Positions 33,106 to 61,805 of a stretch of DNA of 64,000 nucleotides are shown here, in pieces. A program made the position numbers and the translations under genes. Position 1 is the first letter of the stretch. Every line of letters begins with the position of its first letter. The notes beneath the pieces were generated by a model. That model searched no databases, was not told the DNA's origin, and was given only the letters and a program-made list of their open reading frames with translations. This DNA is from Candidatus Poribacteria bacterium (GTDB lineage: Bacteria; Poribacteria; WGA-4E; JAJDTR01), in assembly GCA_965222225.1 (NCBI GenBank), contig CBDCTK010000002.1, forward strand, positions 4,102,296-4,166,295. The letters run 5' to 3'.

Positions 33106-33175
33106 AAAAACTGTCGGTTGATGTCTAGAATATTGTAATTCGCATATTAATTTTGCTCTGACTAAGGAGGAAAAA

Positions 33176-35024: not shown

Positions 35025-35083
35025 AATATCTCCTTCCTGACCTTTCTGGTTAGTTAGAAGAATTATATCATAAATCTATCTAT

Positions 35084-36244: not shown

Positions 36245-36282
36245 GGGGATCAAAGGAGCGGATAGCGACTGCGATAGAGATC
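36245..36282 (+). repeat. copy of modular dispersed repeat
   Basis: GGGGATCAAAGGAGCGGATAGCGACTGCGATAGAGATC. Confidence 0.6.
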
Positions 36283-36418
36283 TTCTCCAGGCCGAGACTT
36301 CATATCGCGAGCAGAACTCGCTCCTACAGAAGACGCGCAGTAAATTGCACTACTACAAACTGACCAACGTAAATCCTATATGTAAAATTCTTAGTTATAG
36401 CGACTATAGTCGAAACCC

Positions 36419-43444: not shown

Positions 43445-44503
43445 ATGAGTAGCCCTTGGTTAATCTCTCAAAAAGCCGATCTAAGCTTTTTTTTCTTGCC
43501 CCTAATCGTTATTTGGGTGGTAATATTCCTGTTGCCGTCTTCCGTCCTTGACCACGATTTGCCCTTGTGGGCATGGGCAGTATTCATCCTGGGATTTGAT
43601 GTAAGCCATGTTTGGAGCACGTTGTTCCGAACCTACATCGACAAGGATGAAACCGAGAGGTTGGGACGAAAGGCGTGGTCGATCCCGCTCCTCTCTTTTC
43701 TTGCCGTTTTCGTCGTATGCTCATTGTCGATTGACGTGTTTTGGCGATTATTGGCATATCTCGCTGTTTCTCATTTCGCGAAACAGCAGTTCGGTTTTCT
43801 CGCTCTTTACCGAATCAGACAGGGAAGAATTAGCAAACGTATTCCGGACAAACTAGCAATTTACCTAGCGGTTCTTTATCCTGTCGTCTACTGGCATTTG
43901 GCTCAAGACAGGTCATTTGAATGGTTTGTGTCGGGCGATTTCGTGTTTCTTAAGCACTTCCAACTACCGCATCAAAAACTAATCATTACCAATGTATTGT
44001 ACTGGACGATCTTGGCAGGTTGGTTAATAGAGGAATGCATTACTTCTGTCAAACAGGTCGGCAAGATAGCTTATGGCAAAATCGCTTGGGTATTGGTCAC
44101 CGCGTTCAACTGGTATTTCGGGATTGTACACTTCAACTCCGACATTGTTTTCTCCGTTACCAACGTAGTTGCGCACGGTCTACCGTATATGACATTGGTT
44201 GTTTGGTATAACATAAGGAAAAACGCGAGTTTGAATCAATCTGTGCCGATATTCCAAATGATTTTCACCGTTGTATTTGGAGCTATATTGTTGGCATATA
44301 TTGAGGAGTTTGGCTGGGATATGCTGCTATTTAGAGAGAGAGGCGAGTTATTTCCGGCTTATTTCATCGGTCTCTTTGAAGGTTCACTGGCGATTGCTTT
44401 TGCGTATGCGCTACTGGCTTTGCCACAAATCACTCATTACATTCTTGATGGAATCATCTGGAAAAACAGCGCATCAAATCCTCACGTGAAACAGATGCTG
44501 TAG
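43445..44503 (+). CDS. polytopic membrane protein of unknown function (352 aa, about 10 TM)
   Basis: hydrophobic ORF tightly following the GNAT gene (16-bp gap). Confidence 0.55.
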   Translation: MSSPWLISQKADLSFFFLPLIVIWVVIFLLPSSVLDHDLPLWAWAVFILGFDVSHVWSTLFRTYIDKDETERLGRKAWSIPLLSFLAVFVVCSLSIDVFWRLLAYLAVSHFAKQQFGFLALYRIRQGRISKRIPDKLAIYLAVLYPVVYWHLAQDRSFEWFVSGDFVFLKHFQLPHQKLIITNVLYWTILAGWLIEECITSVKQVGKIAYGKIAWVLVTAFNWYFGIVHFNSDIVFSVTNVVAHGLPYMTLVVWYNIRKNASLNQSVPIFQMIFTVVFGAILLAYIEEFGWDMLLFRERGELFPAYFIGLFEGSLAIAFAYALLALPQITHYILDGIIWKNSASNPHVKQML

Positions 44504-44531
44504 GCCGGTGCGAAGGAGAAAGAAGCACATT

Positions 44532-45254
44532 ATGGAGTTGTACCCGATTCGCCACGGTCAGTCGACCAACAACCGTGGAGATGCGCGTGTCTCTGATCCA
44601 TCGCTGACGGAGCTCGGGAGGCAGCAAGCGACCAGAGCAGGACTGGCGCTGAGAAACCTGGGTATCACGCGCCTTTAATGTAGTGCGATGCTTCGTGCGG
44701 TGCAAACCGCCACAATTGTTGGAGAACACTTGGGACATGCCCCGCATGTTTTCGTGGGAATTCACGAGTGGGGCGGCGTTTGGGAAGATCGGGTTGATGG
44801 TGGTATGGATCAACTGCCGGGACTAACACGATCGCAGTTGCGCGATGCCTGTCCGACAGCCGTGTTGCCAGATGATGTAACGGACGAAGGTTGGTGCATT
44901 CAAGCATTCGACGCCCACGAACTAGCGTACGGAGGGAACGATGAACAAATGCTGGGCTTGGCACACGAAAATTGCCTTCGATTCATCGCCCACTTGGACC
45001 ACCACCACCACGCAAGAGAACATGAAAAGGTCGGGGCAATTTTGCACGGTGGATCCGGATCAATGCTGCTCGGTGCATTTTTTGGTTTGCTACCAAATGA
45101 AACTCAAAATCGCTTCCCGCACAACAACGCCGGAATCACGAAAATTATTAGAACTCCGAAGTATACCCAGTTGCTTTATCAAAACCAGACCAGCCATCTA
45201 TTGAAAGAGAGTGAATTCGACCTAGAAGCCAGTTCTCCCATGGTAATTTGGTGA
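44532..45254 (+). pseudogene. histidine phosphatase (phosphoglycerate mutase family) tandem copy 1, in-frame TAA at 44676..44678
   Basis: MELYPIRHGQSTNNRGD (RHG catalytic motif) ... ITRL*CSAMLRAVQ where copy 2 has VTRLYFSAMLRAVQ (TAT to TAA). Confidence 0.7.
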
Positions 45255-45408
45255 AACGAGTACTGAATGACCAACACCGCCTAGACGGAATTATTTGAAA
45301 AAACAGTGCATCGAATCCCCACCTGAAACAGATGCTAAAATCCGATACCGTGATAAAGCAGTGCATGATTGCCGGAACCGTTTTCAAGCTGAAAGGAAAT
45401 AACAGATT

Positions 45409-46131
45409 ATGGAATTGTACCTAATTCGCCACGGTCAGTCGACCAACAACCGTGGAGATGCGCGTGTTCCTGAGACACCGCTGACAGAGATCGGAAAGCA
45501 GCAAGCGGACAGATCGGGACGGGCGTTGAAGAACTTGGGTGTCACGCGCCTTTATTTCAGCGCGATGCTCCGTGCGGTGCAAACCGCCACAATTGTTGGA
45601 GAACACTTGGGACATGCCCCGCATGTATTCGTGGGAATTCACGAGTGGGGCGGCCTTTGGGAAGATCGGGTTGATGGTGGTATGGATCAGCTACCGGGAC
45701 TAACACGATCGCAGTTGCGCGATCTCTGTCCAAAAGTGGTGTTACCAAATGATGTGACAGACAACGGTTGGTGGTTTCCATCGTCTGTCAATGATAAACC
45801 GGTATCGGCATGGGACTATGCGCAGATGCTCCAATTGATTCACAGAAACTGCCGTGGGTTCATCGCGCATTTGGAGCAACACCACGGTGGGGAAGCTGAG
45901 AAGATCGGAGCAATTATACACGGAGGCTCCGGCTCAATCCTAATCGGAGCCCTGCTAGGGATGCCACTGCCAAACGAATTTCCAGAGCGCTTCCCACACA
46001 ATAACACCGGCATCACGAAAATTCGAAGAACCCACGAGCACACACAGTTACTGTATCATAACCAAACCGGTCATCTACTGAAGAATTGTGAGTTCAGTCA
46101 AGAAGCTAGCTCCCCATTACTAACATGGTGA
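45409..46131 (+). CDS. histidine phosphatase (phosphoglycerate mutase family), tandem copy 2, intact
   Basis: MELYLIRHGQSTNN...; 240 aa; about 85% identical to copy 1. Confidence 0.75.
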   Translation: MELYLIRHGQSTNNRGDARVPETPLTEIGKQQADRSGRALKNLGVTRLYFSAMLRAVQTATIVGEHLGHAPHVFVGIHEWGGLWEDRVDGGMDQLPGLTRSQLRDLCPKVVLPNDVTDNGWWFPSSVNDKPVSAWDYAQMLQLIHRNCRGFIAHLEQHHGGEAEKIGAIIHGGSGSILIGALLGMPLPNEFPERFPHNNTGITKIRRTHEHTQLLYHNQTGHLLKNCEFSQEASSPLLTW

Positions 46132-46264
46132 GACATTCGATTGACTCAATATTTAGGCGGTATCGCATTATTCAATCGGCTCTTGGCCGTACAATTAGGG
46201 TCGGAATATGCACCCGTACAAATCACTACTCCGTTCTTATCCGTGAGGGAAGGATACAGACGAA

Positions 46265-46963
46265 GTGAATCGCAATCGTATAATCACCGTGGGATATCTC
46301 ATCATCGTTGGAGGGATGTTTGCGCTTAAAGAATTCCTTAATGGAGATATATACCGCGCTGCGTTAACCGCCATGGCGTTTGTATTATTTGGAGTCCTAA
46401 CGTTTTTCTACGACGATTTGCAACATTGGATTAAGCCTTTTGCCCTGACTTTACCGTTAATCGTCCTAGGGTCATCAGTTTATCGAGATTTCAGAGTGGG
46501 CGATGTCTCCTTAGCGATGCTAGGCGTAGCCATGATTGGGGGCGGTGCAATCATATTTTTCCAATCCCAACCGCTCGCAGCAATTAAGGCAATGTTTCTC
46601 ATGAATGTAGGAGGATTATTCGCTTATAGACAATCCTTTGACGGAAACATCGAAAACACAATTCGCATGGGCATCCTGTTTACCTTCTTCTTCGTTCTGT
46701 TCTTTTATGAGAGTGTACCGGCATGGATTAGACCTTTTGTGATGCTACTACCCATAAACCTCTTGGGGTTATCTGCCTATAGAGATTTCCGACTTGGAAA
46801 TACGTCCTGCGTTATTTTAGATATAGTCTTGATTGCAGGGGGCGCTCTGATGTTGGTTCAAGACGCACCGTTCATAAAAGGGAAATTGCGGTCCTCTTTC
46901 AGTTTAATTCCGGTCATCGCATTTACCGTTTTCCTCCTCTGGGATATACTTCTGCTCTCCTGA
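46265..46963 (+). CDS. small membrane protein built from an internal tandem duplication (about 6 TM)
   Basis: two similar halves: FALTLPLIVLGSSVYRDFRVGDVSLAMLGVAMIGGGAIIFFQ and FVMLLPINLLGLSAYRDFRLGNTSCVILDIVLIAGGALMLVQ. Confidence 0.5.
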   Translation: MNRNRIITVGYLIIVGGMFALKEFLNGDIYRAALTAMAFVLFGVLTFFYDDLQHWIKPFALTLPLIVLGSSVYRDFRVGDVSLAMLGVAMIGGGAIIFFQSQPLAAIKAMFLMNVGGLFAYRQSFDGNIENTIRMGILFTFFFVLFFYESVPAWIRPFVMLLPINLLGLSAYRDFRLGNTSCVILDIVLIAGGALMLVQDAPFIKGKLRSSFSLIPVIAFTVFLLWDILLLS

Positions 46964-47770
46964 AACAAAATCCTCTACACAGGGATGGGATGAAGTTCAT
47001 TTAAGTTATCAAGAAACGTAGACGCATCTGGAACGAGCAGAATACGTGATGCGTTTTCCTCGTGTAGCACGGTATCCACAACATCTAACAAGGCCCCGTT
47101 CAATCGGCAACGCGTATATGAAGCAACACGTTGCATTGAGCTAATCCGAGAGATTATGGCGCACTACAAACAGCTAGAGCTTGATTACAATGGACCAGAA
47201 ATGGAGGAGACAAACTTAAAAGAAGAGGACTACATCGTTCTGAGTTTGTAACCGGAATCATACGAAGGAATCTTATCGAGTGAAAATACATACGAGTACC
47301 GTATCCAGTTTAGAAAAAGACCAACAATAGCCTTTGTCTATTTAATGTCACCGGTAAAATGTATCAGTGGCATCATTCGATTCGACACACCACTTATCGA
47401 TTCGCCGGAAGAAGAGGAACAGAAGCTTGGCAACTGCAAGCCCGTAATTGAATACCTATCAAGATATAAGTTGGGATATGCTATTCCCATCGCAAGGTGA
47501 CGGAAATCACACCTGTGTCGTTGGCTAGTTTGCAATCGAAATACAATTTCACACCGCCTCAGGCGTTCCTGTATTTGAAGAACAACAGACCTCTCTTTGA
47601 TTTCTTGGTTATCCAATGAAATTTGGAAACCTTAATCGCAGGGGAAATTCTCTCCCAGATTCTACCTCATTAGCTGCTTTTTTATGACCACTGTTTTCAT
47701 CGGAAGGAATCCCCATAGAAATTTTGAGAGAATTGAAGTTTGACCGCGCGGTAGGGGAGCATTCTCGAAG

Positions 47771-48244
47771 ATGACCATGAAGAGACGAAAGACAGTATAC
47801 CTTGCGAATCCCTACGGTTTCTCGGAGCAACAGCGGGAATACCTATTACCAGCCCTGATTCAGGCACTGGAAGCTATTGGCTTAGAGGTATGGGAGCCGT
47901 TTGAGCGAAACAACAATGAAGACATTTCGTTACCCGGCTGGGCATACCGAATTGGACAACGAGACAAGAATGATGTCGTTGAAGCGGACGCGATTTTTGC
48001 CGTCGTGAACGGTGTCCCGCCCGACGAAGGGGTTATGGTCGAATTAGGAATCGCGATTGCGCTCGGAAAGCCCACATTCCTATTCCGCGACGACTTTCGG
48101 GGTGCCGCCGATTCCGATGAATACCCACTCAACCTCATGGTCTTCACTGGCTTACCCCGCTGTGGATGGGAGCGGTACTACTTCAAATCGATAACTGAGA
48201 TTTCATCGCCCGACAAAGCATTGGCGCCTTGGGCAAAAATATAG
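47771..48244 (+). CDS. nucleoside 2-deoxyribosyltransferase-family protein
   Basis: TVYLANPYGF ... DAIFAVVNG ... MVELGIAIALGKPTFLF matches the NDT fold signature (YLAGPFF ... E.G.A.A.GKP). Confidence 0.7.
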   Translation: MTMKRRKTVYLANPYGFSEQQREYLLPALIQALEAIGLEVWEPFERNNNEDISLPGWAYRIGQRDKNDVVEADAIFAVVNGVPPDEGVMVELGIAIALGKPTFLFRDDFRGAADSDEYPLNLMVFTGLPRCGWERYYFKSITEISSPDKALAPWAKI

Positions 48245-48287
48245 GCAAGATTTTATTTCACATATATGATTACGAACTGGAGGTCTT

Positions 48288-49493
48288 ATGAAACTGATCG
48301 GTGGCGGAATTACGGCTGTTCCCGGTATTCGGGCATCGGGCGCGCACGGCGGCTTAAAGTCGGATAACCAGAGAGATGTCGCGTTGATTGTTGCGGATTC
48401 GCCGGCAGTGGCAGCAGGGGTATTTACGCGAAATCGTGTATGTGCCGCAACAGTTCTGCTTTCCCGTGAACACCTGAAAGATCCGGTCGCCCAAGCAATA
48501 GTCGTCAACAGTGGCAATGCAAACGCCTGCACCGGGGAACAAGGACTCGACAATGCTCGAAAAATGGCAGCCTTGGTTGGGGAGCAGCTTAACTTGGAGT
48601 CGAAAAACGTATTGGTTTCTTCAACGGGTGTGATTGGTGTACAATTGCCGATGGATGCAATCAGAAAGGGCATTGAGCGTGCTGCCGATACGTTGCGCGA
48701 AGATGGCGGATACGATGCGGCACAAGCCATTATGACCACTGACACCGTGCCGAAAGAGATTGCAGTGGAGATTGAGGTTGGCGGAGAAAAGGTCAAGATT
48801 GGGGGAATGACAAAAGGCTCGGGCATGATTGCGCCGAACATGGCGACGATGCTTGCGTTTCTGGCGGCGGATGTGAATATTGCAGCTGCGCCGTTACAGG
48901 AAGCTCTCCGGAAATCGGTCAATAAATCATTCAACCGGGTAACGGTTGACACAGACAGAAGTACCAACGACACAGTACAAATCTTGGCGACCGGATCGGC
49001 ACGCAATTCTGAAATCACCGAAGCATCAGGCGACGATTTTGATGCCTTCTACACAGCACTTGAGTTTGTCTGCATTGAGTTGGCGAAGAAGATAGCGCGG
49101 GACGGAGAAGGAGCCACAAAGATGATTGAAGTGGTTGTCAAGAATGCGAAGACCGAGGCAGAAGCCGAATTAGCAGCGCGAGCTACCGCCGAATCCCCGC
49201 TTGTAAAAACTGCCGTTTTCGGGAAGGATGCCAACTGGGGACGTATAATGATGGCGGTTGGAAAATCTGAAGCGCAGTTCGATCCTTACCAAGTGGATGT
49301 TTGGCTGGGTGATTACCAACTGGTGAAGGCAGGCATGGACTCGGGTTTTGATGAGGAGAAGGCTACACAGCTTTTCTCTGAGGACACGGTTGTAATCACT
49401 ATAGATCTTGCCGCAGGTGATGCAGAGGCGACGATGTGGACGTGCGACTATTCCTACGACTATATCAAGATAAACGCAGATTATCGGACATAA
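48288..49493 (+). CDS. argJ: bifunctional glutamate N-acetyltransferase / amino-acid N-acetyltransferase ArgJ
   Basis: autoproteolytic site PNMATMLAFLAAD and overall ornithine acetyltransferase family layout. Confidence 0.9.
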   Translation: MKLIGGGITAVPGIRASGAHGGLKSDNQRDVALIVADSPAVAAGVFTRNRVCAATVLLSREHLKDPVAQAIVVNSGNANACTGEQGLDNARKMAALVGEQLNLESKNVLVSSTGVIGVQLPMDAIRKGIERAADTLREDGGYDAAQAIMTTDTVPKEIAVEIEVGGEKVKIGGMTKGSGMIAPNMATMLAFLAADVNIAAAPLQEALRKSVNKSFNRVTVDTDRSTNDTVQILATGSARNSEITEASGDDFDAFYTALEFVCIELAKKIARDGEGATKMIEVVVKNAKTEAEAELAARATAESPLVKTAVFGKDANWGRIMMAVGKSEAQFDPYQVDVWLGDYQLVKAGMDSGFDEEKATQLFSEDTVVITIDLAAGDAEATMWTCDYSYDYIKINADYRT

Positions 49494-49546
49494 AGACGCT
49501 CAACTAGATTCAGAAATATGCCTCTGCCCGTCATTGCCGAATCCGT

Positions 49547-49586
49547 CGAGACCGAGGTTTTTGCGAATAACTCGGTCTCTCTTGCG
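49547..49586. terminator. possible bidirectional terminator hairpin between convergent argJ and isomerase genes
   Basis: GAGACCGAG ... CTCGGTCTC 9-bp stem with 14-nt loop containing GTTTTT; the loop is longer than ideal. Confidence 0.3.
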
Positions 49587-49612
49587 CAATTTCTTAACAC
49601 GAGCCCTTTAGG

Positions 49613-50611
49613 TTAGTCTTCAAATGGCGCATCAAACGCAATGTCTGACGGTTCAAAGTCATACGCTTTGACCGCGGCGCATGATTCGCGCGCGCCGTGC
49701 TCGCGGTCCATGCCACTATCCTCCCACTCAATCGATAAGGGGCCATCGTGCCCAATGCGGTTGAGCGCTCGGATAATCTCCTCAAAGTTGATATTCCCGC
49801 GGCCGATTGAACGGAAATCCCAGTATCGTTGACCATCTCCGAAATCGAGGTTTCCGCCGAAAACGCCGGAAAGACGCGGCGTGGATGACCACCAGACATC
49901 CTTCATGTGGACATGGTAGATTCGGCTGCCGAGACGCTCGATAAACGCGACGTAATCAACCCCCTGATATCCAAGGTGGCTAGGATCGTAGTTGAAACCG
50001 AAGGTTTCACGACCGTCAAGCGCTTCGATTGCCCGCTCGGCGGTCACAATATCGAAAGCAATCTCGGTCGGGTGAACCTCAAGCCCAAACTGGACACCCA
50101 CTTCATCGAATACGTCAAGGATCGGATTCCAGCGGTTGGCGAAGTCCTCATATCCCGCATCAATCTGGGCGGGATCGTTCGGCGGGAAGGAATAAAGCAG
50201 ATGCCAGATGCTGCTGCCTGTAAATCCGTTAACCACGCTTGCTCCCAGTTTTGCCGCCGCGCGTGCAGTTGCCTTCATTTCATCGGCGGCGCGTTGACGG
50301 ACGCCTTCCGGATCGCCATCGCCCCAGATATTTGGAGCAAGAATGGCTTGATGTCGGCCGTCAATATTGTCGCAGACCGCCTGACCGACAAGGTGATTAC
50401 TGATTGACCAGACTTTAAGTCCGTACTTCGCCAGAAGGTCGTGTTTTCCCTGACAGTAATCGGGATCTTCCAAAGCTTTGTCAACCTCGAAGTGATCGCC
50501 CCAGCAAGCTAGTTCCAAGCCGTCAAAACCCCAGTCGCTTGCTTTCTGCGCCAAATCTTCCAGTGTCAAATCCGCCCACTGGCCAGTGAACAGTGTAACA
50601 GGTCTCGCCAT
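49613..50611 (-). CDS. sugar phosphate isomerase/epimerase (xylose isomerase-like TIM barrel)
   Basis: [23 protein letters not shown] ... [10 protein letters not shown] pattern of the AP-endonuclease-2/xylose-isomerase-like TIM barrel family. Confidence 0.75.
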
Positions 50612-50741
50612 TTTGCTGCCTCCTTTGATTCTAATATTTTGATTCTAATATATGGTATTCTTTTTGGAAGGATCGCCTTCAGAAAATTGAACGGTCAACG
50701 CTATATTGAAAAGTTGGTTTCCAAAAACACCAAATGTCGGA

Positions 50742-51914
50742 TTACGAAGGTGGTGTATAGCAAGCGTCGATCCAGGCGCGTTTTGTACCGCTTTCGACCG
50801 CTTTATGTATGAAATGAACGCCGCGCGCCCCGTCCTGCACCGTCGGAAAGTCTGTATCGAATTCACCCGGCTGCTCGCCAGCAATTTTTGCCGCCATTGT
50901 GCGTGCTGCGTTGACGTAGATATTCGCGAAAGCCTCTATGAATCCTTCGGGGTGGCCAAACGGAATGCGGGAGTTGTGCTGCGCGATTTCGGCGACATAG
51001 CCGTTTCCTCGTTTGTAAACTTGCTCGGGGCCGTCCGGAAAACGAACGTAGAGGTAGTTCGGGTTCTCTTGATGCCAGTCTAACGAAGCGTCAGTACCGT
51101 AAACACGGATGCGAAGGTTGTTTTCCTCTCCCACCGACACTTGAGATGCGTAGAGGATTCCTCTCGCGCCGTGTTCGAAACCCACCAAGACGTTTCCGTC
51201 GTCTTCCAATTTGCGTCCCGGCACAAACGTCGTCAGATCGGCGCAAATTTCTTCTATCCCCAAGCCGGTGATGTAGTGAGCGAGGTTTTCCGCGTGCGAA
51301 CCAATGTCGCCGATACAAGAAGAAACACCTGTTTGATTGGGGTCTGTGCGCCAGACAGCCTGTTTGGTACCTTCCGCTTCCAAGAGAGTTGACAGCCAGC
51401 CCTGCGGGTATTCGACCACAATTTTTCGAACCGTTCCAAGCTGTCCGCCTCGAACCAACTCGCGTGCCTGCTTGACCATCGGATAGCCGGTATAATTATG
51501 GGTAAGTGCGAAGACGGCATCGTGTTGCGTCACTAGCCGACATAATTCCTCCGCGTCCTCTACCGTCGTTGTCATTGGTTTGTCGCAAACGACGTGGAAT
51601 CCCGCTTCGAGAAAAGTCTTCGCCGCATCAAAATGAATATTATTTGGTGTAACAATAGATACAAAATCGATTCGATCTCCTTCAGGTAGTTGGCTCTCCT
51701 TCTCTGCCATCTCCTTATACGAGCCGTACACTCGACTGGCGTCAAGTAGAAGCTCTTCGCCCTGTTGACGCGATTTGTCGGCGGATGAGGAGAACGCACC
51801 CGCGACTAGCTCAATTTCGCCGTCAAGTGCCGCCGCCTGCCGATGGACGGCACCAATAAACGCGTCCGGACCACCTCCTACCATCCCGTAACGTATTTTT
51901 CTTCCGAGTGGCAT
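50742..51914 (-). CDS. Gfo/Idh/MocA-family oxidoreductase
   Basis: [18 protein letters not shown] Rossmann start and conserved C-terminal alpha/beta domain. Confidence 0.8.
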
Positions 51915-52137
51915 ATTGGTATCTCCTTTGATGTTATGTATGCCAACAATCGTGTTGACCGAATCATTTTGAGACTGCTTTCGTAAGTCCTATCTATCTA
52001 GCAAATTACTGCATCCAAAATATCGATCCAATATAGCACGGTGGTGGGTTGCTGTCAATCACATAAAAAACGTAAATCGGAGCAATTGTCTCTATTCATG
52101 TGTGGAAATCCGTTATCTTGCACTCCTAATTCTCCGT

Positions 52138-53620
52138 AGGGGATCAAGTGAGTGAATAGCGAATGATCAACTGAGCGAACAGCGAAGGCGATAGAGTTCC
52201 CATAGAGATCCCTCCTCGCCCGCTCCCTTTCGGCAGAAATCCCTATATCCAACCACGCCCAGTCCATTGCGAACCACAATCCTGCGAGGCTATATGTAGG
52301 GTGCGCACCGCGCACCAGCCTTTTCGTCGTACTCGCGCGATAGAGTTCCTACCAGCCTTCCTATGCACCCGTAGGAGCGGCCTCGCGGTCTCGCTTGCGC
52401 AAGCCGGAGCGTCTGTCGTGAATATGCAGGTTGCGGGGCGGTGGAAATCCCCTCGGATGCCGGCGCATTATGCCCGCGCCGAGTTGGCAGAGCAAGGAGC
52501 AATTGCACGCTTCAAATACGGGAAAGACGGTGGGGGGTAGCGAACCGGGAAGGATAGTTGAGGGAAAGTACATATGTAGGGTGGGCACTGCCCACCATTT
52601 TTCTTAGGTGCGATTAACCGCCTGTTTAAGCCCGTGGGTTGGGATGAACGAAACCGAGAATTCCGGTGTCGACACACCAAACTTCCTCAAACTGGCTGAC
52701 CCGTCGGATAGCATCAAGGAAAGAGTGAAACCCAACTTCACCCCCTACGTCATCGGACACCTCCCCGGCAAACGTTGGGTTTCACTAGGATCACCGAGAA
52801 TTTATTCCGAATAGCGTCCCACAATCGTCGTGTCATGCTTGGTGTTTTTGCTTGTTACCGTTCAACCCAACCTACGCGCTTCCCACCATCTCTTATGGGG
52901 TACGATAGCCGATCCCGATAGAAATCCCTCAAGCAAACCAGATCGTGGGGGCGAGGTCTCCTCGCCCATTCTGTTGCGCACCCTAATCCCGTGCGGTAGA
53001 GCGTCCATTCCGCCAACCCCACACCTCCGCCACACCAATAAACGGCACATGCTCCTCCCACCGCCGACTCAACCCGCCGTTCCTAATCCACGTAATCCAA
53101 TAATCCATCAAGCGAGTGAATAGATCGTGTGACCGAAAAGGATCAAGGGCGCGAATAGCGACCGCGATAGAGATCCGCCATGTCTGTCGCAAACCGATAG
53201 CCCCGTCTTGCACTCCAGCTGAGAACAAGCGACTGAATGAGGAGTGATCGAACCAATGGACACTGAATACGATAGGGAATCCTGATAGTATTTCCCACTG
53301 CGATGGAGTTCTTAAAATGAAGTTAAACGTCGCGCCTTGCACTCCAGCGGAGTGCGATGTCGATAGAACTGCAATGCGTACAATCTTCGCGCTCCAAAGG
53401 AGCGCAATGTCGGTAGGATGGCGATTCGATAAGGATCAAACGAGTGAACAGTGGTCTCCGTAGGGGCGCGATCAACTGACTAGATAAGGAAGGATCAAGT
53501 AAGTGAATAACGATCAACCGACTGATTAGGGAGGACGATAGTAGATTCTGCGCGATAGAATTCCTATAGAGATCCCCCCGCGCCCAATCCCGCGCGATAG
53601 ATTTCTCATAGCAATCACGA
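52138..53620. repeat. 1.5-kb gene-poor tract densely packed with the modular dispersed repeat (at least six copies in both orientations)
   Basis: e.g. 52138-52212 GGGGATCAAGTGAGTGAATAGCGAATGATCAACTGAGCGAACAGCGAAGGCGATAGAGTTCCCATAGAGATCCC; 53107-53180; 53222-53290; 53410-53620; only short overlapping ORFs. Confidence 0.6.
52301..52540 (+). pseudogene. C-terminal fragment of a tyrosine recombinase (integrase) gene
   Basis: SGLAVSLAQAGASVVNMQVAGRWKSPRMPAHYARAE...ARFKYGKDG parallels the C-terminus of the intact integrase at 58873..59784 (GHSLRIGSAVSLAEAGASVKEVQRAGRWQEPTMPARYVREA...ARYKAGK). Confidence 0.55.
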
Positions 53621-53907
53621 CCGGGTTTCCATGACGGCCTGACTTCCAACAGCAAATCGAATCTTCCTCTTTATAGCCAAACGCCCTGCAGTAGTTCTAT
53701 TTGCTTGTTCGCTTTCCTCGGTGCTATACTTGCCACGCTATTCTACTTCGGTACAATAGCTGTTGTCAAATAAGCGATAGAGCAATTTAGCGCCATCGTC
53801 GGTTTCACGAGGCGCGCTGCTGACAGAAATCGAACCCAATGTGTCTTATCATACGTTCTATCGACTAATCGACTCCCGCGGCAAAACCAATCCGTGAAGG
53901 AAAAAAC

Positions 53908-54993
53908 TTGAGAATTGAAAACGTCGACTTTCCCAAACCGTTGATAGAAGCCTTGCATGACAACGAACTCGTAGTGTTCGCTGGGGCTGGCGTTTCAATC
54001 GGTAAACCTGCCCGTCTGCCCAGTTTCAGATCGTTGACCAATATTATCGCCGAAGGTACCGGGAAAACGGCGCGCGATGGCGAGACGCCTGAGCAATTCC
54101 TCGGAAGATTAAAAGACCAAGGCGTAAAAGTGCATGTGCGCGCTGCGCGACCGCTTTCTCAAGAAGGTTTGCAGGCTACGGCCCTTCATCAAGATCTTCT
54201 TAGACTCTATCCTAAAACAGCGCCCGTTCGCCTCGTCACCACTAATTTCGATCCCCTGTTTGAGCAGGCAGCCTTTGAGCAGGCAGCCGAGGAAATATTC
54301 GACAGTTCGCCAGAAGTATTCCGGGCACCCGCGCTGCCTTTGGGACGTGAGTTCGACGGCATTGTTCATGTTCACGGTTCAGTCCGTCGCCCTAACGAGA
54401 TGTTACTTACGGATAGAGATTTTGCTCGCGCTTATCTGACCGATGGCTGGGCTCGACGCTTTCTCGTCGAACTTTTCAGTAATTTCCGAATCCTCTTTGT
54501 TGGCTACAGTCATGACGACACGATTATGAATTATCTGGCCCGCGCGCTTCCTGCCGGTTCGGAATACCAACGTTTCATTTTGACCGGTTCCGAAGACAAG
54601 AAACCCTCTGATGATTGGCGTTCACTAGGGATTGAACCGATAGTCTACCCTCAGGCTAACGAAAATGACTATAGTGAACTCGACACAAGCATTCATGGCC
54701 TCGCCGAACTTGTACAGCGACGCGTTGTTGTTTGGAATGATGAAATAACCAATATAGCGCAAGTTCCGCCTCCCACTGACGAGAATAAGGCAGATCTCAT
54801 TGAGTACGCGCTAAGCGATGAAGTAAACACAAGGTTCTTTGCAAAAGCGGCTTCAGATCCTGATTGGATTGACTGGCTCGACGAGCGTGGACATTTGACC
54901 GCGCTATTCCGCGACGATATACTCACCGCGCAAGCCAAAACCTTGTCTTGGTGGTTGGCAGATCGATTTCTTTTCGGAATTAGTAGCTTGTAG
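53908..54993 (+). CDS. SIR2-like (DHS-like NAD-binding, SIR2_2 type) domain protein; candidate NADase defence effector, probably the 5' part of an IS-disrupted longer gene
   Basis: LVVFAGAGVSIGKPARLPSF (GAGxS), VTTNFDPLFE (TTNYD) and VHVHGSV (catalytic His) are the three SIR2_2 hallmarks; ORF ends abruptly 20 bp before an IS1595 element. Confidence 0.75.
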   Translation: MRIENVDFPKPLIEALHDNELVVFAGAGVSIGKPARLPSFRSLTNIIAEGTGKTARDGETPEQFLGRLKDQGVKVHVRAARPLSQEGLQATALHQDLLRLYPKTAPVRLVTTNFDPLFEQAAFEQAAEEIFDSSPEVFRAPALPLGREFDGIVHVHGSVRRPNEMLLTDRDFARAYLTDGWARRFLVELFSNFRILFVGYSHDDTIMNYLARALPAGSEYQRFILTGSEDKKPSDDWRSLGIEPIVYPQANENDYSELDTSIHGLAELVQRRVVVWNDEITNIAQVPPPTDENKADLIEYALSDEVNTRFFAKAASDPDWIDWLDERGHLTALFRDDILTAQAKTLSWWLADRFLFGISSL

Positions 54994-54999
54994 CTTTTA

Positions 55000-56215
55000 G
55001 ACTGACGACAAACATAAAACTTGGTACCCTGTCGTAAATCTTTTCGTCACACGTAGATGTCCATAGTGACTATTCTTCTCGTAGGAGTTTGCTATGGACA
55101 TTTTGAATCTTATGAAAGAGTTTCCAAATCAAGAATCTTGTCTCAGATTTATAGAGGAAAAACGTTGGAAGGACGGTGTTTGCTGTATCCACTGTGGCAG
55201 TGAAAAAGTTGGACGCAAGAACAAAAACGACATTACTACTGGTTGGAATTGCTACGATTGTGAATCTAGCTTTTCGGCTACAGCAGGAACCATCTTCCAT
55301 GGTACCAAGATACCTCTCCAGAAATGGTTTTTGGCTATCTCAATTCTTTCCAATGCCAAGAAAAGCATATCGAGTTGTCAGCTTGCTCGTGACTTGGACA
55401 TGAATCAAAAGTCCGCTTGGTATATGGCAATGCGCCTCCGTGAGAAAATGAGTGATAGTGATGAATTGCTGAAAGGGATAGTTGAAGCGGACGAAACCTA
55501 TGTCGGCGGCAAACCCAGAGCAAAATCTAAGAGAGGTAGAGGCACAAATAAATCTCCCGTCATCGGCGTAGTCGAGAGAGGCGGTCGGGTGGTTGCTAAA
55601 TTCATGAAGGTTCTATCTGGTGAAAATATCAGAGAATTCATCCTTAGCAATGTCTCACCCGATGAGTCTATTCTTATGACTGATGAATTTCGCTCTTACA
55701 ATAGTCTGGACGAAGATATCGAAAGACATGTTATCCATCACCAAGAGAGATATGTTTCTGAGGACGGCGTAACTCACACCAACACCATCGAGTCGTTTTG
55801 GGCTTGTGTCAAGAGGTCATTCTACGGAACGCATCATCACTACAGCAAGAAGTGGCTGCCACTGTATATCATGGAGTCTTGCTGGAAATATAATCGCAGA
55901 AAAGATGATGAGATTTTCATAAGATTTTTTGATGAATGCTTCACCTGAGCCACATGAATTGTTTGGCTATCGGTATATTCTGTCAACGACAACATCATGG
56001 TGTGCTGAAAATCCCATAGTGTTGGAAATTAAAATCCCGCAGATAACCCGCAATGCTCCCGCGAGCATGTACAAACGCTTGGTCAACATGATATGCCTCC
56101 ATTTCTCTCTTATAGAGATGTATTTTAGTGTGAATCAAGATTCCGAACACTGTCTAAAATGATTGTACATTAAGAAGAGAAAAGCAAGCAAATCGACCAA
56201 AAAGCAGTTAACTAC
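55000..56215 (+). mobile_element. IS1595-family insertion sequence (boundaries approximate)
   Basis: single transposase gene with N-terminal CxxC zinc ribbon and E-x-DETYVGG motif; I could not define the terminal inverted repeats by eye. Confidence 0.55.
55094..55948 (+). CDS. IS1595-family transposase
   Basis: CIHCGSEKVGRK...CYDCESSF zinc ribbon; EADETYVGGKPRAKSKRGRG; DDE-type C-terminal region. Confidence 0.8.
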   Translation: MDILNLMKEFPNQESCLRFIEEKRWKDGVCCIHCGSEKVGRKNKNDITTGWNCYDCESSFSATAGTIFHGTKIPLQKWFLAISILSNAKKSISSCQLARDLDMNQKSAWYMAMRLREKMSDSDELLKGIVEADETYVGGKPRAKSKRGRGTNKSPVIGVVERGGRVVAKFMKVLSGENIREFILSNVSPDESILMTDEFRSYNSLDEDIERHVIHHQERYVSEDGVTHTNTIESFWACVKRSFYGTHHHYSKKWLPLYIMESCWKYNRRKDDEIFIRFFDECFT

Positions 56216-56274
56216 TAAGTCCCTTTCTTTTCAACCATGCAAACAGACTTTTCCTGCTCATTGGTAAGCATAAT

Positions 56275-58626
56275 ATGCGCTTGCATCCGCAGCTCTGGCG
56301 CGATATGGGTTGGAAACTTGCGAGGAATGGTGAAGTTTTTTCTGATAAAGACACGCTTCGCCGCTGGTTTTCACTGTTGCTTACCTCTCTTCGAGAGAAA
56401 ATAAGCATGAACGATCTGATGCATGTCGACACGGACTATCTCCTGCCTCAGATGGGTGAACTTTGCATAGCAAACGAAATGCTGGATGATTTATTGCAGA
56501 TATTCGATTGGATGATGGAAAGTCGCATTCGGATTAACAAAGGATACTCGTGGCCTTCTGCCGACGATGACAGGGAAATACCCTCTGTTGATGCTGAATT
56601 AATTCCAATTAGCGAACAACACGAATTGAATGAACTGTGGGAAGTGGGACTGAAGCCTAAGCTACCTCAAGTAGCCAAGCCGTTACTCGATCGGGTAATC
56701 AGGCGGCTAGAAGGACAATATCTCACACTGTGTACTTGGGGAAAGGTGCACGGCACATGGGATCCAATGAGCGAGGGACGTTCTGCCATTGAGCCTGAAG
56801 AAGGGGATGGTAATACCGAATCGATTGATGTGATGATCAATGCGGCCCGCGATTGCCTCTTATGGCTGGCTTCCAATCAGGTAGAAACAGCGACACAATG
56901 GTGTAATCGGCATGTGCGTTCGGGAGTAACTCTGCTACGCAGACTTGCGGTACATGGGGTGTACAAACGCGAAGATTTAACAGCAGACGACAAAATTGAT
57001 TGGTTACAAACACACATAAATCAGATTGGGTTGTCGGTTGGCGCCGAAGTGTTCCCGTTACTACAGCAAGCCTATCCCGAAGCCTGCCCGGCACATCGAA
57101 GCTCGCTTATTGAAGCCATGTGGACTTACCGTTGGCCTAAGGAAACAGCTTCGGACGGAGATAAGCATGCGGCAAGGCAACAATTCGACTGGTTTAATTG
57201 CATCCATCGATGTGTTCCTGACTGCCTCTTGGCTAAAGCAGCGTTGGATAAAGTGTTGGCGCGGTACCCAGAATTCAAGTCGATGGTACCTCAACCTCCG
57301 ACACAAGGAGGCATATCAGGTCCAATCGCGCCGCAAAGTGCTCCGCCCCCTGAAGAACTACCGCCAACACCTTCCGCCGATCAACTACACGAGTTACTGT
57401 CAAATCAAACTGCAGCGTGGGATGAAGCTAAACATAGTCAAGTATTCCAGAGGCTTGTCAGAATTGAGTTGTATCCAAAATATAGTCACGCGATTGCCAA
57501 TGCGCTCTATGCACTGGTAGAGAACGGTGGTCCCTCCTATGCCTTAAAACTACTCCCGCAAGCCCAGCGAATCGCTTCGGCACTGTGGCCCCATCTTGAC
57601 CGGACCGCGCCAATCGATGCAAGAGGAGACTGGCTATTCGCCGCCATGAATCACCCGGCAGGGCTCCTGGCTTACTTCTGGATATCTGCACTCTCACTCT
57701 GGCGCGAGCACCACGATCCTAAACCTACAATTCTCAACGATGACTATCGTAGGGCGCTGTCCGACATTGTGGTGGACCGGTCGCCGGCAGGTACGCTCGG
57801 GCGGACGGTTCTCGCCAGCAAATTGCATATTCTCTTGGACGCTGACCAGGTATGGACACGTGAATATCTTCTTCCGCTTTTTGACCCGTGCAGCGATGAC
57901 TTCCAAAGTGCGTGGGACGGTTTCGTAAAATGGGGAAAGCTCAATCCTTCGGTCGCTAAAGCCATGACTGATCTATTCCTCAAGGCAGTTACGCGGATCG
58001 GCACCGACCTCTTCAACCAACGTGATTCATTCGTAAAACACTACATCGCTATGCTCATAGATTCCATTTATATCGCCGAAGACCCTCTCAGCGAATGGAT
58101 TCCTAAGATATTCAATCACGGCAGCCAAGATAGTCCTTCTGCCGATAGCGAACCTACGCTTTTTCCCCGCGCCAATCGATCTATTGCGGAGATCTTTGCA
58201 TCAGTTATGAGTAGCCGCTTACGGAATATGCCTGAAACCGAGCAGCGGGAGTTGTGGGAGCACTGGCTCAAGGATTACTGGCAGAATCGCCTGGAAGGTG
58301 TGCCCTCCCCACTTATGTCTAGCGAAGCTAAACTCATGCTCGATTGGCTGACGGCTTTGACTGCGGTATTTCCCGATGCCGTCGCGCTTGCTGTCCAGAT
58401 GCCATCGACTTCGTTGGAGCGTACGAGGATTCTATCTTCTCTGGTGAAAAATAGTACATGGTTGAGCCATCCCGATGCGGTCGCGAAGTTATTGATTTAT
58501 CTGTGGCAATGCGGTATACCGGCACACTATTGGCACTTAGTGCAGAAGATCGTTGCCCCCCTCGTCGAGTCGAAAATCCCGGCAGAACTTCAGCAGAAAC
58601 TGGAGGACATCAGAATCCAACTCTAG
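56275..58626 (+). CDS. large all-alpha-helical protein (783 aa), possibly the displaced C-terminal sensor part of the SIR2 gene
   Basis: reading frame is open upstream of the annotated Met back to 56217 with no RBS; highly helical, Leu/Ala/Trp-rich repeats. Confidence 0.5.
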   Translation: MRLHPQLWRDMGWKLARNGEVFSDKDTLRRWFSLLLTSLREKISMNDLMHVDTDYLLPQMGELCIANEMLDDLLQIFDWMMESRIRINKGYSWPSADDDREIPSVDAELIPISEQHELNELWEVGLKPKLPQVAKPLLDRVIRRLEGQYLTLCTWGKVHGTWDPMSEGRSAIEPEEGDGNTESIDVMINAARDCLLWLASNQVETATQWCNRHVRSGVTLLRRLAVHGVYKREDLTADDKIDWLQTHINQIGLSVGAEVFPLLQQAYPEACPAHRSSLIEAMWTYRWPKETASDGDKHAARQQFDWFNCIHRCVPDCLLAKAALDKVLARYPEFKSMVPQPPTQGGISGPIAPQSAPPPEELPPTPSADQLHELLSNQTAAWDEAKHSQVFQRLVRIELYPKYSHAIANALYALVENGGPSYALKLLPQAQRIASALWPHLDRTAPIDARGDWLFAAMNHPAGLLAYFWISALSLWREHHDPKPTILNDDYRRALSDIVVDRSPAGTLGRTVLASKLHILLDADQVWTREYLLPLFDPCSDDFQSAWDGFVKWGKLNPSVAKAMTDLFLKAVTRIGTDLFNQRDSFVKHYIAMLIDSIYIAEDPLSEWIPKIFNHGSQDSPSADSEPTLFPRANRSIAEIFASVMSSRLRNMPETEQRELWEHWLKDYWQNRLEGVPSPLMSSEAKLMLDWLTALTAVFPDAVALAVQMPSTSLERTRILSSLVKNSTWLSHPDAVAKLLIYLWQCGIPAHYWHLVQKIVAPLVESKIPAELQQKLEDIRIQL

Positions 58627-58680
58627 CAATCAATGTGACCAGTTTCAATCTGATGAATCAGATTGATGACTATTATTGTA

Positions 58681-58810
58681 GGGTGGAATCTGCGATCAAG
58701 CGACTGAATAAGGAGCGATCAAAGGAATGGATTATGACTGCGATAGGAATCTCTATAGAAAATCCCACGCGATAGAGCTCCCATAGCAAATCGCGTACGA
58801 TAGAAAGTCC
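58681..58810 (+). repeat. modular dispersed repeat, multi-word copy
   Basis: GGGTGGAATCTGCGATCAAGCGACTGAATAAGGAGCGATCAAAGGAATGG...GCGATAGAGCTCCCATAGCAAATCGCGTACGATAGAAAGTCC. Confidence 0.6.
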
Positions 58811-58872
58811 TTTGGCGCCAGTAGGGCGTGATTCGATACTGTTCAAATTCGTCGTATTCCGCTCTCGCCTTC

Positions 58873-59784
58873 TTACTTCCCAGCCTTATACCGCGCCACT
58901 GGACTCCGTTCCGACGGTGCCTCCCTCACATACCGCGCCGGCATCGTCGGCTCCTGCCACCGCCCCGCTCGTTGCACCTCCTTCACGCTTGCCCCGGCCT
59001 CTGCAAGCGACACCGCAGACCCGATACGAAGCGAGTGTCCGCTAATCAATCCCGTCACTCCCGCTTCCGCCGCCCGCCGCTGTATCGCCGCGCGCCCCCC
59101 CTTCACCCCCAGCCGATCGTCAGTCACATGATTCTGGAAGCGTATCCTCCGGAACAAAGCCCCCGACGCAATCCCCGCTCTCGTTCGATACCGCTCTATC
59201 AACCGCCGTGTCGATTCACAGATATACAGATTCTCGCCCTGGTCCTCCCCGCTTGTCCTCTTGCCGTAGACCTGAAGCCCCTCGGCTCTAACATCCTCCA
59301 CATCCACTGCAACCGCCTCCGAGATGCGTAACAGGCAATCGCTCATCAGCCTAATCATGGCGGCATCACGGGTGCCCGCCGCGGTATCTGACGATTCCGC
59401 CGCCGCACACACCCGCTCCACTTCGTGCCACGTAAGCCCGTCTACCTGGCGCCGCCCGCGCCCTTTACCTTCGCCGCGGATATCAGACAATGCGCGAGCG
59501 GTGATGTCCCCAACCACATTGCCAACCCCACGGTACTCCGCCATCCACTTCACCGCGGACACGACCAGCTTGATCGTCGCCGGCGATTTCCCCTGTGCAT
59601 ACAGAAACCTGATATATTCCGCCAGCACCGCATCCGATAGGGCACGTCCGTCTAGCCAAGCTTCCAGCTTGCGGCTCGCGTGCTCATACGCCTTGAGCGT
59701 GTTATCCGCCACGTTTGCCCGAATCTCCTGCCCCGTACCCGCGGCGATTCGCAACCCCCTATCCGATTCCTTGCCTTGCTTCAT
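58873..59784 (-). CDS. tyrosine recombinase / phage-type integrase
   Basis: C-terminal catalytic box GHSLRIGSAVSLAEAGA...AGRWQEPTMPARY (H-x-x-R ... Y) and N-terminal SAM-like core-binding region. Confidence 0.85.
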   Translation of the reverse strand: MKQGKESDRGLRIAAGTGQEIRANVADNTLKAYEHASRKLEAWLDGRALSDAVLAEYIRFLYAQGKSPATIKLVVSAVKWMAEYRGVGNVVGDITARALSDIRGEGKGRGRRQVDGLTWHEVERVCAAAESSDTAAGTRDAAMIRLMSDCLLRISEAVAVDVEDVRAEGLQVYGKRTSGEDQGENLYICESTRRLIERYRTRAGIASGALFRRIRFQNHVTDDRLGVKGGRAAIQRRAAEAGVTGLISGHSLRIGSAVSLAEAGASVKEVQRAGRWQEPTMPARYVREAPSERSPVARYKAGK

Positions 59785-59956
59785 GATAAACCCCTCGTCA
59801 GATTTATACCACCGTTGCCATATTCATCGACCGCCCAAGCCGTCGAGCATAACTGGCACCCCAAGTGAACATGGCAACACGAATATCGTTACATACAGCC
59901 AGTGTTGAGGAATCTCGACCTTTCTGCCTTGGAGCCTGTTTGAAAAGTACAGTTTG

Positions 59957-60225
59957 TAGGGTGCGATCAAAGGAATGAATAATGACTCCGATAGAGATCC
60001 CCTGCGATCAAGCGAATGAATAATAAGCGATCAACTGAACGAATAGTGAAGGAGCAACTGACCGATAGGGAAGGCGGTAGAGATCCCATAGAAAGTCCTG
60101 ATAGAGATCCTACCAGCCTCTAAAAGCCCCCAGAGTGGGATCAAGGGAGATCCAATGAGCGAATAGCGAATGCGATAGGGATCCCTGATAGAGACTGCGA
60201 TAGAGATCCTAACAGGTATGTAGCA
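59957..60225 (+). repeat. modular dispersed repeat, long multi-word copy
   Basis: GGGTGCGATCAAAGGAATGAATAATGACTCCGATAGAGATCCCCTGCGATCAAGCGAATGAATAATAAGCGATCAACTGAACGAATAGTGAAGGAGCAACTGACCGATAGGG...GCGATAGAGATCC. Confidence 0.6.
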
Positions 60226-60301
60226 GCCAACAATGAAAACATGAAAAAACTCTCTACAAATGACCAAAAATGGCTTTGCCACCGATTATTCAAACAGGCT
60301 C

Positions 60302-61155: not shown

Positions 61156-61727
61156 ATAATGTTTTCGGTTGTCGTCCGGAATCCGCAGCGTACGCTGGAA
61201 TTCAATCGCGAGCTCGGCAAATCCGTATATCTCCGGAAATCGAAATATAATCTAATCGTTTCTCAGTTCAATAGTTTTTTTCCCGTTCCTAGTCCTATTA
61301 GCCATAATCATAGACCTCTCTGTTTTTTAATTCCTGATGAGCAAAACACTTCAACACGTAATATGTATTATAACAGGATTTATATAACTTAACAACCGAA
61401 AACATCAAGCCCTTTCCAATTCAGCCCCGCCGCCCTTGTAGCCCCTCTTCTACGGTCGCAATCCCCCGGCGGACGCGCCCGCTGTTCGTGGCGTGGGGTA
61501 CGCTGCACACTGCTATCAAGCCAGCTAGCCGGCGAATACCGAGTGCGGTAGACATCCCCTCCAGCCGGCGCCGCGCAAATACGCCTAAGCAACGGGCAAC
61601 GGCAACCCTCGAAGCGATGCGGGCTGCTTTGGTGTCGTGCCGAGGCGCCGCCCTGCGCCACCAACTGATCGAACATATTGATGGATTGAAAAACGATAAA
61701 GCGAATGGCCAACTGACTGGATAATGA

Positions 61728-61805
61728 AGGATCCACTGAGATCAACCGACTGATTAGGGAGGACGATAGTAGATCCTGCGCGATAGAGTTCCCATAGAGA
61801 TTCCA
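61728..61805 (+). repeat. copy of modular dispersed repeat
   Basis: GAGATCAACCGACTGATTAGGGAGGACGATAGTAGATCCTGCGCGATAGAGTTCCCATAGAGATTCC. Confidence 0.55.

Follow-up and report, generated by a model that had tools for sequence, protein, structure and literature searches.

A 64,000-nt stretch of Candidatus Poribacteria DNA (contig CBDCTK010000002.1 of assembly GCA_965222225.1, positions 4,102,296 to 4,166,295 of the forward strand; hereafter the window) contains a previously undescribed repeat of 35-36 nt, here termed unit U, which folds into a hairpin and occurs in the non-coding DNA of this phylum. Candidatus Poribacteria is a lineage known from sponges, where its members live as symbionts; two proteins of the window have homologues that point to the same lineage. 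The hairpin covaries on one strand, whole units are nested within each other, units lie in the tips of other palindromes that also exist in empty form, and close strains differ by single units. We read U as a miniature insertion element resembling repetitive extragenic palindromes (REPs), recognised as single-stranded DNA and moved in trans, and consider the chances of this reading to be about even.

Results

Unit U comprises module H, made of GATCAA and a hairpin, followed by module C (GCGATAGAGATCC), in the layout 5'-(G)ATCAA / xyGAzw / G(A/G)A(T/C)A / w'z'GAy'x' / GCGATAGAGATCC-3'; the alignment of 108 distinct single units gives the consensus GGGATCAAGCGAGTGAATAGCGAGTGCGATAGAGATCCC. The stem of H consists of 2 bp, a tandem G.A/A.G and a further 2 bp, and its loop is a conserved 5-nt G(A/G)A(T/C)A. 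Each of the four stem pairs (x-x', y-y', z-z' and w-w') varies on both sides in a compensatory way among the 108 units, a count to be read with the copies of one repeat family not being independent events. Across the four pairs, 95.4% of the cells pair, and the covariation score is 0.427, compared with 0.204 after shuffling (none of 500 shuffles reached the observed value) and at most 0.17 with slid partners. RNAalifold, unprompted, predicts the same four pairs. The covariation does not come from ascertainment, because no stem position was fixed by the patterns with which the units were collected. The tandem GA and the loop, on the other hand, are invariant or nearly so in an alignment whose selecting regular expression fixed those positions; with a looser anchor, the tandem G.A/A.G is found in about 80% of 450 matches. 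The idea that the hairpin arms are direct repeats was ruled out, arms such as AGGAGC and GCGACT being complementary and not identical.

The hairpin belongs to one strand. GU pairs outnumber AC pairs by 64 to 8 in the 108-unit alignment and by 213 to 58 in the looser set and, since a tandem G.A reads C.T on the opposite strand, only the sense strand folds. In both arms, the bases beside the GA tandem are a pyrimidine on the 5' side and a purine on the 3' side, a context that favours sheared tandem G.A pairs. Module C is an unpaired and conserved motif; a (G/A)TAG stands 3' of the stem, 3 nt past it, and the stem is preceded on its 5' flank by the invariant (G)ATCAA. Pairing in an outer helix, GGGATC/GATCCC, amounts to 77% with scant covariation, and GATC is self-complementary anyway. 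An earlier note on this DNA, made from the sequence alone, had described a dispersed modular family of short words, some copies of which can form hairpins; both points stand, but the covarying hairpin and the nested order described next, which are the informative features, had gone unseen.

Chains of modules follow a bracket-like and not a tandem order. HC was found 168 times, HHCC 23 times and HHHCCC three times, as against six HHC, four HCHC and 20 HCC, and the count of C modules in a chain follows that of its H modules. The subtypes of H and C also match in bracket order within nested arrays; for example, the hairpin CTGAAC...GTGAAG and GATAGTAGATCC go together, both in the innermost position of HHCC arrays and in the middle position of HHHCCC arrays. 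This order is what whole HC units inserting repeatedly into an older H/C junction would give. Tandem slippage was ruled out as the main source of the arrays, HnCn far outnumbering (HC)n.

To date, unit U is confined to Candidatus Poribacteria in all the scans run, among the matches listed. Scanning 185,579 genomes, one per species, for the exact pattern GATCAANNGANNGRAYAGYGANNGCGATAG returned at least 110 stretches, all of them, among the matches listed, in about 15 Candidatus Poribacteria assemblies, of which all but two look like long-read, chromosome-scale metagenome-assembled genomes. The pattern was absent from shuffles of the window and is thus not expected by chance; it had no match in the viral contigs scanned, which leaves a phage origin unsupported. 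Joint Genome Institute (JGI) metagenome contigs gave no match to the full pattern, and the four matches to a shorter pattern all lacked the left half of the unit and are attributable to chance. A search of the literature library found no paper tying Poribacteria to REPs, to REP-associated tyrosine transposases (RAYTs) or to repeats of the type known as MITEs (miniature inverted-repeat transposable elements). For comparison with the window we used a set of 110 Poribacteria loci of 8 kb each (labelled L followed by a number), picked with our own pattern, so the density and orientation statistics drawn from them are biased.

Units sit at or near the tips of other palindromes, chiefly of REPs headed by GTAG, and also at the H/C junction of earlier copies; a GT(A/G)G head together with a palindrome defines REPs (PMC2817692, PMC3733652). 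For 46 arrays, the surrounding repeat has another copy with only 0-3 nt in the place of U, and these host repeats fall into at least seven types, among them (short stretch in the place of U between carets) the GTAG-headed REP TGTAGGGTGCG^CA^CTGCGCACC as well as GGTAGGTGCG^G^TTTCCTAACCGCACC, CCGTAGGCGGGG^C^ATCTTGCCCCGC, TTGTAGG^A^GCGATCTCC, GCACTCCAGAGG^A^GTGC and AGCCCCAGAGGGG^CG^GAAGG. The base preceding U is G in 80% of the arrays, U is co-oriented with the GTAG head at a ratio of about 5 to 1, and comparisons of filled with empty sites revealed no target-site duplication. Many copies lie inside GTAG-headed REP hairpins, contrary to the earlier view that the family does not resemble REPs or bacterial interspersed mosaic elements (BIMEs), and the clusters are therefore BIME-like mosaics.

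Palindromes of this kind also flank RAYT genes in related genomes. RAYT-like genes with a Y1_Tnp domain were found in two of the related loci (L072 of OZ244829.1, 2655-3233; L025, about 5520-6140), both bordered by GTAGGGTG(C/G)GCA REPs, whose inverted orientation is clear for L072. At L072, several of the bordering REPs carry U in their loop, in one case reversed. The GTAG-headed REP family TGTAGGGTG(C/G)GCAnnGC(G/C)CACC is represented in the window at 52292-52325 and 52572-52600 on the plus strand and at 25601-24 on the minus strand. Judging from these sequences, the GTAG REPs and the RAYTs appear to form an undescribed REP-RAYT system in the Poribacteria phylum.

Comparison with strains represented by contigs of one European Nucleotide Archive (ENA) sample, about 96-98% identical to the window (L111 over 44199-52303; L114 over 1613-11529 and 16296-28286), revealed that U is gained or lost as a whole unit between them. 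BLAST alignment yielded only four indels of at least 4 nt in about 30 kb of aligned blocks, and two of the four are at unit loci. At 52.2 kb, HHCC in the window corresponds to HC in L111, and apart from one base change the two differ by a single 34-nt block that equals the inner unit; at 5.1 kb, the host palindrome encloses a further unit, in tandem, in L114. Immediately upstream of the 52292 REP, just past the aligned block and at the limit of synteny, L111 also carries a further REP of 62 nt whose loop contains a unit. At 18.27 kb, the operon spacer is occupied in both the window and L114; L115 carries another array there, and in L116 the site is empty (GGTAAATCAAATACAGAATGG). The pair of units at 27.8 kb does not differ between the window and L114, except for one substitution in the intervening spacer.

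Positions relative to genes rest on approximate calls by a crude codon-usage caller of our own. All 16 full units of the window lie outside predicted genes, in agreement with the earlier description of the copies as intergenic; the copy at 15045 falls only in the 5' extension of an open reading frame (ORF), and alignments of the homologues of this ORF to the window stop at about 15010. Over the window and the 110 related loci, 263 of 274 classifiable matches are intergenic and 11 'genic', in DNA of which 74% is coding. The orientation of units relative to flanking co-directional genes is near random (63 sense and 48 antisense regions); such independence from transcription fits a role at the level of DNA and not of mRNA. 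Units are slightly nearer to the upstream stop codon (59%). Half of the window's units are in the 52-62 kb region, together with an IS1595 transposase and an integrase, whereas the other eight are between ordinary housekeeping genes, and the densest related loci also hold housekeeping genes; the proposed concentration next to degraded genes and mobile elements is therefore not specific.

A separate case is an array at 1319-1468 of L106 (minus strand), which lies in frame within an unannotated 818-aa ORF with a good codon score and no Pfam match; its translation contains ...SSERIASAIENPSSERIASAIENP.... A 36-nt unit equals 12 codons, so insertions can keep the reading frame.

Copies in the window were called with a covariance model built from the 108 distinct units, full units being those with E<1e-5, although these E-values are rough. 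There are 16 full units, plus partial modules. Four full units are on the minus strand (5105, 11623, 15045 and 18267) and 12 on the plus strand (27834, 27921, 33005, 36246, 52163, 53139, 53510, 58715, 59963, 60050, 60147 and 61738); all the positions listed in the earlier note were found again, and it had missed the copies at 15.05 kb and 18.27 kb. The underlying words are over-represented in the window, with 19 occurrences of GATAGAGATCC (at most one mismatch; 1.1 expected), 11 of GAGTGAATAG (at most one mismatch; 3.2 expected) and eight exact occurrences of GGATCAAG (2.5 expected), and the dispersed word family is thus real. Repeat finding sorts the window copies into families D5, D14, D16 and D20. 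The modular build seen earlier also recurs in Tandem Repeats Finder (TRF) output, which at 52142-52212 gives a period of 22-23 nt for H and 11 nt for C. The interval singled out in the earlier note, 52138-53620, belongs to 2 kb of non-coding DNA that has an oxidoreductase gene on one side and a SIR2-like gene on the other. The features are listed in Table 1.

Table 1. Units, modules and host repeats along the window (E-values from the covariance model, rough).
Position	Strand	Feature	Support
5105-5145	-	Single HC unit within palindrome CGGTAGGCGGGG..TTGCCCCGC	E 6e-14
11623-11663	-	Single HC unit within CGGTAGGCA..TTTCCAACCGCTCTACG, adjoining empty REP GGTAGGTTCGGTTTCCTAACCGAACC	E 8e-7
15045-15100	-	HC unit (AAGGATCAACCGACCGAATAGGGAGGGCGATAG...)	I1, I8; E 1.5e-6
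18267-18307	-	Single HC unit filling 2-Hacid_dh/DUF6785 spacer	E 2.5e-10
27834-27961	+	Two HC units with recurrent spacer ATGAAGGTATATAGAAACACCAAAACCCCGTGCACATAAGCCCCAGCGC between	E 6e-12, 1e-12
32954-33100	+	Mixed-orientation cluster: HC unit, reverse-complement H modules, terminal C; long hairpin possible	I13, I15; 33005-33045, E 6.5e-6
36246-36286	+	Single HC unit straight after CTGTAGG	E 5e-13
52136-52215	+	GTAGG head, then nested HHCC array (H1 GATCAAGTGAGTGAATAGCGAAT, H2 GATCAACTGAGCGAACAGCGAAG, C1 GCGATAGAGTTCC, C2 CATAGAGATCC)	Unit 52163-52203, E 6e-11
52292-52325	+	Host-type REP TGTAGGGTGCGCACCGCGCACCAGCC, GTAG-headed and empty	REP type flanks RAYT genes in L072, L025
52336-52350	+	Lone C module GCGATAGAGTTCC	Word match
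52572-52600	+	Empty GTAG-headed REP TGTAGGGTGGGCACTGCCCACCATT	Inverted repeat I23
52916-52930	+	Lone C module CGATAGAAATCCC	Word match
53107-53179	+	Truncated H (ATCAAGCGAGTGAATAG), then full HC unit AGGATCAAGGGCGCGAATAGCGACCGCGATAGAGATCC	53139-53179, E 6e-10
53213-53296	+	Host hairpin arm GCACTCCAG, then degenerate HHCC array	Families D14, D16
53336-53412		Another host hairpin family in two empty copies (GCACTCCAGCGGAGTGC, GCGCTCCAAAGGAGCGC), with AATGTCGAT/GGTAG-like sequence after each	
53432-53453	+	Partial H module (GGATCAAACGAGTGAACAGTGG)	E 0.024
53460-53585	+	Palindrome GTAGGGGCGC...CCCCGCGCCC with nested HHHCCC array in loop	D14, D20; 53510-53551, E 4e-6
53590-53612	+	Two degenerate C modules (GCGATAGATTTCTCATAGCAATC)	D20
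58678-58810	+	REP arm TGTAGGGTGG, then HH array and about five C modules	D14, D16, D20; 58715-58755, E 2e-8
59925-60300	+	Composite element with 13-bp inverted repeats GAGCCTGTTTGAA / TTCAAACAGGCTC at ends; inside, REP arm, HC unit (59963-60003), HHHCCC array (60004-60110), spacer TACCAGCCTCTAAAAGCCCCCAGAG, array (60138-60210)	E 8e-12, 4e-8, 5e-10
61705-61804	+	Degenerate HHH and CCC array	D14, D20; TRF; 61738-61779, E 4e-7

Two of the listed features have relatives elsewhere. The GCACTCCAGCGGAGTGC/GCGCTCCAAAGGAGCGC hairpin family alternates with units in long irregular tandem runs in other genomes (for example, in L071, eight pattern matches in 2.5 kb). The non-coding composite at 59925-60300 (about 375 nt) also has conserved spacers, and its conserved inner parts recur in at least seven other Poribacteria loci (L020, L039, L040, L042, L048, L090 and L095); the right-hand inverted repeat is present in several of these as well, and none of the copies is followed by a long ORF.

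The strain comparison also brought up differences that do not involve U. At about 25524, a 27-nt indel relative to L114, with CGTAG-containing flanks, lies between two glycoside hydrolase genes and is not a unit. The 97%-identical L114 lacks a 4.77-kb segment (11530-16295) that holds several minus-strand genes, among them a tandem pair of paralogues (11765-12724 and 12783-13796), and has just 80 nt between the sulfatase and DUF6785 genes. Synteny with L111 stops at 52303, beyond which the window (52303-59800) encodes SIR2_2, the IS1595 transposase, DUF4020 and a tyrosine integrase, and L111 instead an AAA_21/ABC ATPase and DUF4435; 52303-59800 looks like a variable defence or mobile island. 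Elsewhere in the window, paralogous genes at 29709-36067 are built of internal repeats of 126-147 nt (D1-D8, motif W-S-P-D-G...I-A-F) and probably encode beta-propeller repeat proteins; one repeat copy (32093-32127) contains TAG and the ORF is split into 31760-32122 and 32147-32764, which suggests a pseudogene. No transfer RNA or transfer-messenger RNA (tmRNA) was found in the window, Rfam gave no match over the window at gathering score, and an exact look-up of the window's 783-aa protein returned no match.

Discussion

If U is a miniature insertion element, it would be non-autonomous and have little beyond its two ends, H serving as the left end and C as the right. The enzyme moving it in trans would most plausibly be a candidate Y1/HUH transposase such as the RAYT of related Poribacteria. 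Accessible targets would be the single-stranded loops of REP hairpins and the 3' foot of U's own hairpin, and U would insert at the H/C junction of earlier copies; such self-targeting would give the nested HnCn arrays. In its strongest and, in our view, rather doubtful form, this proposal would make U the smallest self-nesting transposable unit known, consisting of just a hairpin as left end (tandem sheared G.A stem, GNANA loop) and a motif as right end; a RAYT-type Y1 transposase would move it as single-stranded DNA, both to exposed REP tips and to its own H/C junction.

Several observations weigh against a mobile U. The tie between enzyme and unit is indirect: the RAYT association is with the host REPs, and those bordering the RAYT gene of L025 lack U. 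No gene for a Y1 transposase is present in the window. At the junctions, 1-3 host bases are replaced and not simply split, which peel-and-paste insertion would not predict, and beyond the preceding G no clear target motif is found in the arrays. Because most filled/empty pairs are paralogues, they do not give the direction of change, insertion or precise deletion. The 20 HCC arrays misfit simple nesting, and the stability of the fold is ordinary (z-scores of -0.6 to -1.6 as RNA and about 0 as DNA); it should be noted that nearest-neighbour models may treat tandem G.A pairs poorly. Unit orientation is clustered regionally with no two-replichore pattern in three complete chromosomes and shows no link to local GC skew, in both cases in a small sample of pattern-selected 8-kb pieces.

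An alternative we judge unlikely is that U is a structured RNA motif, within mRNAs or on its own, whose tandem-GA hairpin with a GNRNA-like loop binds a protein and stabilises or processes transcripts, as REP RNAs can, its spread being secondary. The covariation with its many G-U pairs, the folding of one strand only, a minimum-energy RNA fold that recovers both P1 and P2, and the sense orientation of some copies in operon spacers (e.g. 18267-18307) all agree with such a motif. However, the near-random orientation relative to co-directional genes, the presence of units within other repeats and within each other, which suggests no positional logic, and the weak fold z-scores speak against it, as does Rfam, which even at E up to 5 over 51900-53900 gave chance-level matches only. 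Neither is the pairing pattern peculiar to RNA, since DNA hairpins, too, are stable with G.T wobbles and with tandem sheared G.A pairs. It is also improbable, we believe, that U is a non-mobile, variable loop module of REP-type palindromes that would spread and change in length passively, through gene conversion, unequal recombination among the numerous repeat copies or template switching at stalled hairpins. The replacement of 1-3 host bases at junctions with no clean insertion would follow naturally, as would the microhomology (ATCAA) at the 18.27-kb site, the local clustering of orientation, the co-orientation with the GTAG head and the polymorphism of whole REP-plus-U units. On the other hand, a passive module is hard to reconcile with the occurrence of U in at least seven unrelated host types and in unique spacers such as that at 18.27 kb; slippage or unequal exchange predicts (HC)n, yet HnCn dominates and the subtypes of H and C travel together in bracket order; and the conserved unpaired motifs and the covarying stem point to specific recognition.

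Two further explanations carry far less weight. That the words are arrays of duplex DNA binding sites at helical (11-12 bp) spacing, for a nucleoid-associated protein, a regulator or a GATC-directed system, seems very improbable: the 11-nt period of C, the 22-23-nt period of H and the invariant words GATC, GATAG and GAATAG would be expected of such sites, but compensatory changes preserve pairing within a strand and not the sequence, the strand asymmetry of GU over AC is strong, the arms are not direct repeats and there are insertion-like filled and empty sites. That the copies are degenerate CRISPR arrays, or what is left of a coding tandem repeat of 12 residues, is in effect refuted: spacers are absent, and the pairing pattern speaks against it. 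A unit of about 36 nt would suit both the length of a CRISPR repeat and 12 codons, and the L106 array does lie in frame, but modules abut with neither unique spacers nor fixed periodicity, as the earlier note had recognised in setting CRISPR aside, and no cas genes were found among the ten ORFs tested between 48.3 and 61.2 kb. As for coding, typical units have stops in two of the three sense frames, the variable positions follow the helix and not the codon phase, and only the 11 'genic' matches lie inside predicted genes.

How REP-type repeats spread is an open question, and U leaves an unusually legible record of it. Given the nested arrays, the many filled/empty pairs and the differences between near-identical strains, long-read genomes of this uncultured phylum could reveal both the rules of insertion and the enzyme. 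The covarying hairpin with its tandem G.A is a compact recognition structure. Should the proposed mechanism be true, RAYT-driven mobility, which is poorly understood for REPs, would leave readable nested insertion records in a natural system. From a practical point of view, the repeats probably break short-read Poribacteria assemblies and could serve as strain markers for sponge symbionts.

Comparison with known repeat systems

U shares with MITEs a short, non-coding and dispersed nature, presence/absence polymorphism and, possibly, weak 6-bp inverted termini (GGGATC/GATCCC), but it has no target-site duplication and is far below the usual MITE size. The MITE-like nature proposed in the earlier note therefore survives as far as insertion-like behaviour goes, with filled and empty sites and strain polymorphisms, and fails on duplication and size. 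No parent insertion sequence with U-like ends was seen, although no systematic search for one was made, around the IS1595 transposase gene (55094-55948) or elsewhere. The BOX elements of Streptococcus pneumoniae have a modular boxA-boxB(n)-boxC structure with modules of 45-59 nt, of which only the middle one varies in number. The modular build, the variable number of internal modules between conserved ends and the intergenic, non-coding location are common to BOX and U, whereas both modules of U multiply together in nested form and the two have no sequence similarity.

Other parallels are found among the IS200/IS605-type single-strand transposons and their miniature derivatives, the palindrome-associated transposable elements (PATEs). 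As in these elements, the hairpin of U is a strand-specific recognition element, no terminal inverted repeats are needed, there is no target duplication and insertion would be into single-stranded or hairpin DNA. U differs in being about five to ten times smaller and in having one hairpin in place of two; no defined tetranucleotide target was found, and a replication-strand bias was not seen in our small, pattern-selected sample. IS1397 and ISKpn1, which insert into REP loops, provide a precedent for elements that target these loops.

With the BIMEs of Escherichia coli, U shares the mosaic arrangement, the clusters at 52.1-53.6 and 58.7-61.8 kb being mosaics of REPs and other short conserved motifs within long intergenic regions; in the segment 52136-53612, for example, REPs occur together with U arrays, lone C modules and further host hairpins. 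BIME linkers, however, lie between REPs, whereas U lies inside the REP loop and has a conserved hairpin of its own, and regular REP alternation was not found, the two clear REPs (52292 and 52572) being on the same strand at irregular spacing. To our knowledge, nested HnCn self-insertion has not been described for REPs. It is nevertheless to the REP and REPIN systems with their RAYTs, the GTAG superfamily (PMC2817692, PMC3733652, PMC3116915), that U bears the broadest likeness: it is small (35-36 nt, within 20-40 nt), high in copy number and extragenic, it has a stem-loop kept by compensatory changes, even if the stem is short and interrupted by a tandem G.A, conserved unpaired motifs lie beside that stem, copies cluster into mosaics, RAYT genes are present in the lineage, and some REP families also insert inside small palindromes (PMC3733652). 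U departs from REPs in having no GT(A/G)G head 5' of its stem, its (G/A)TAG lying on the 3' side, in a stem of only four Watson-Crick pairs around the tandem G.A, and in being a guest inside true GTAG REPs and not the RAYT-flanking repeat itself. The U system thus works like REPs and BIMEs while being a member of no named family.

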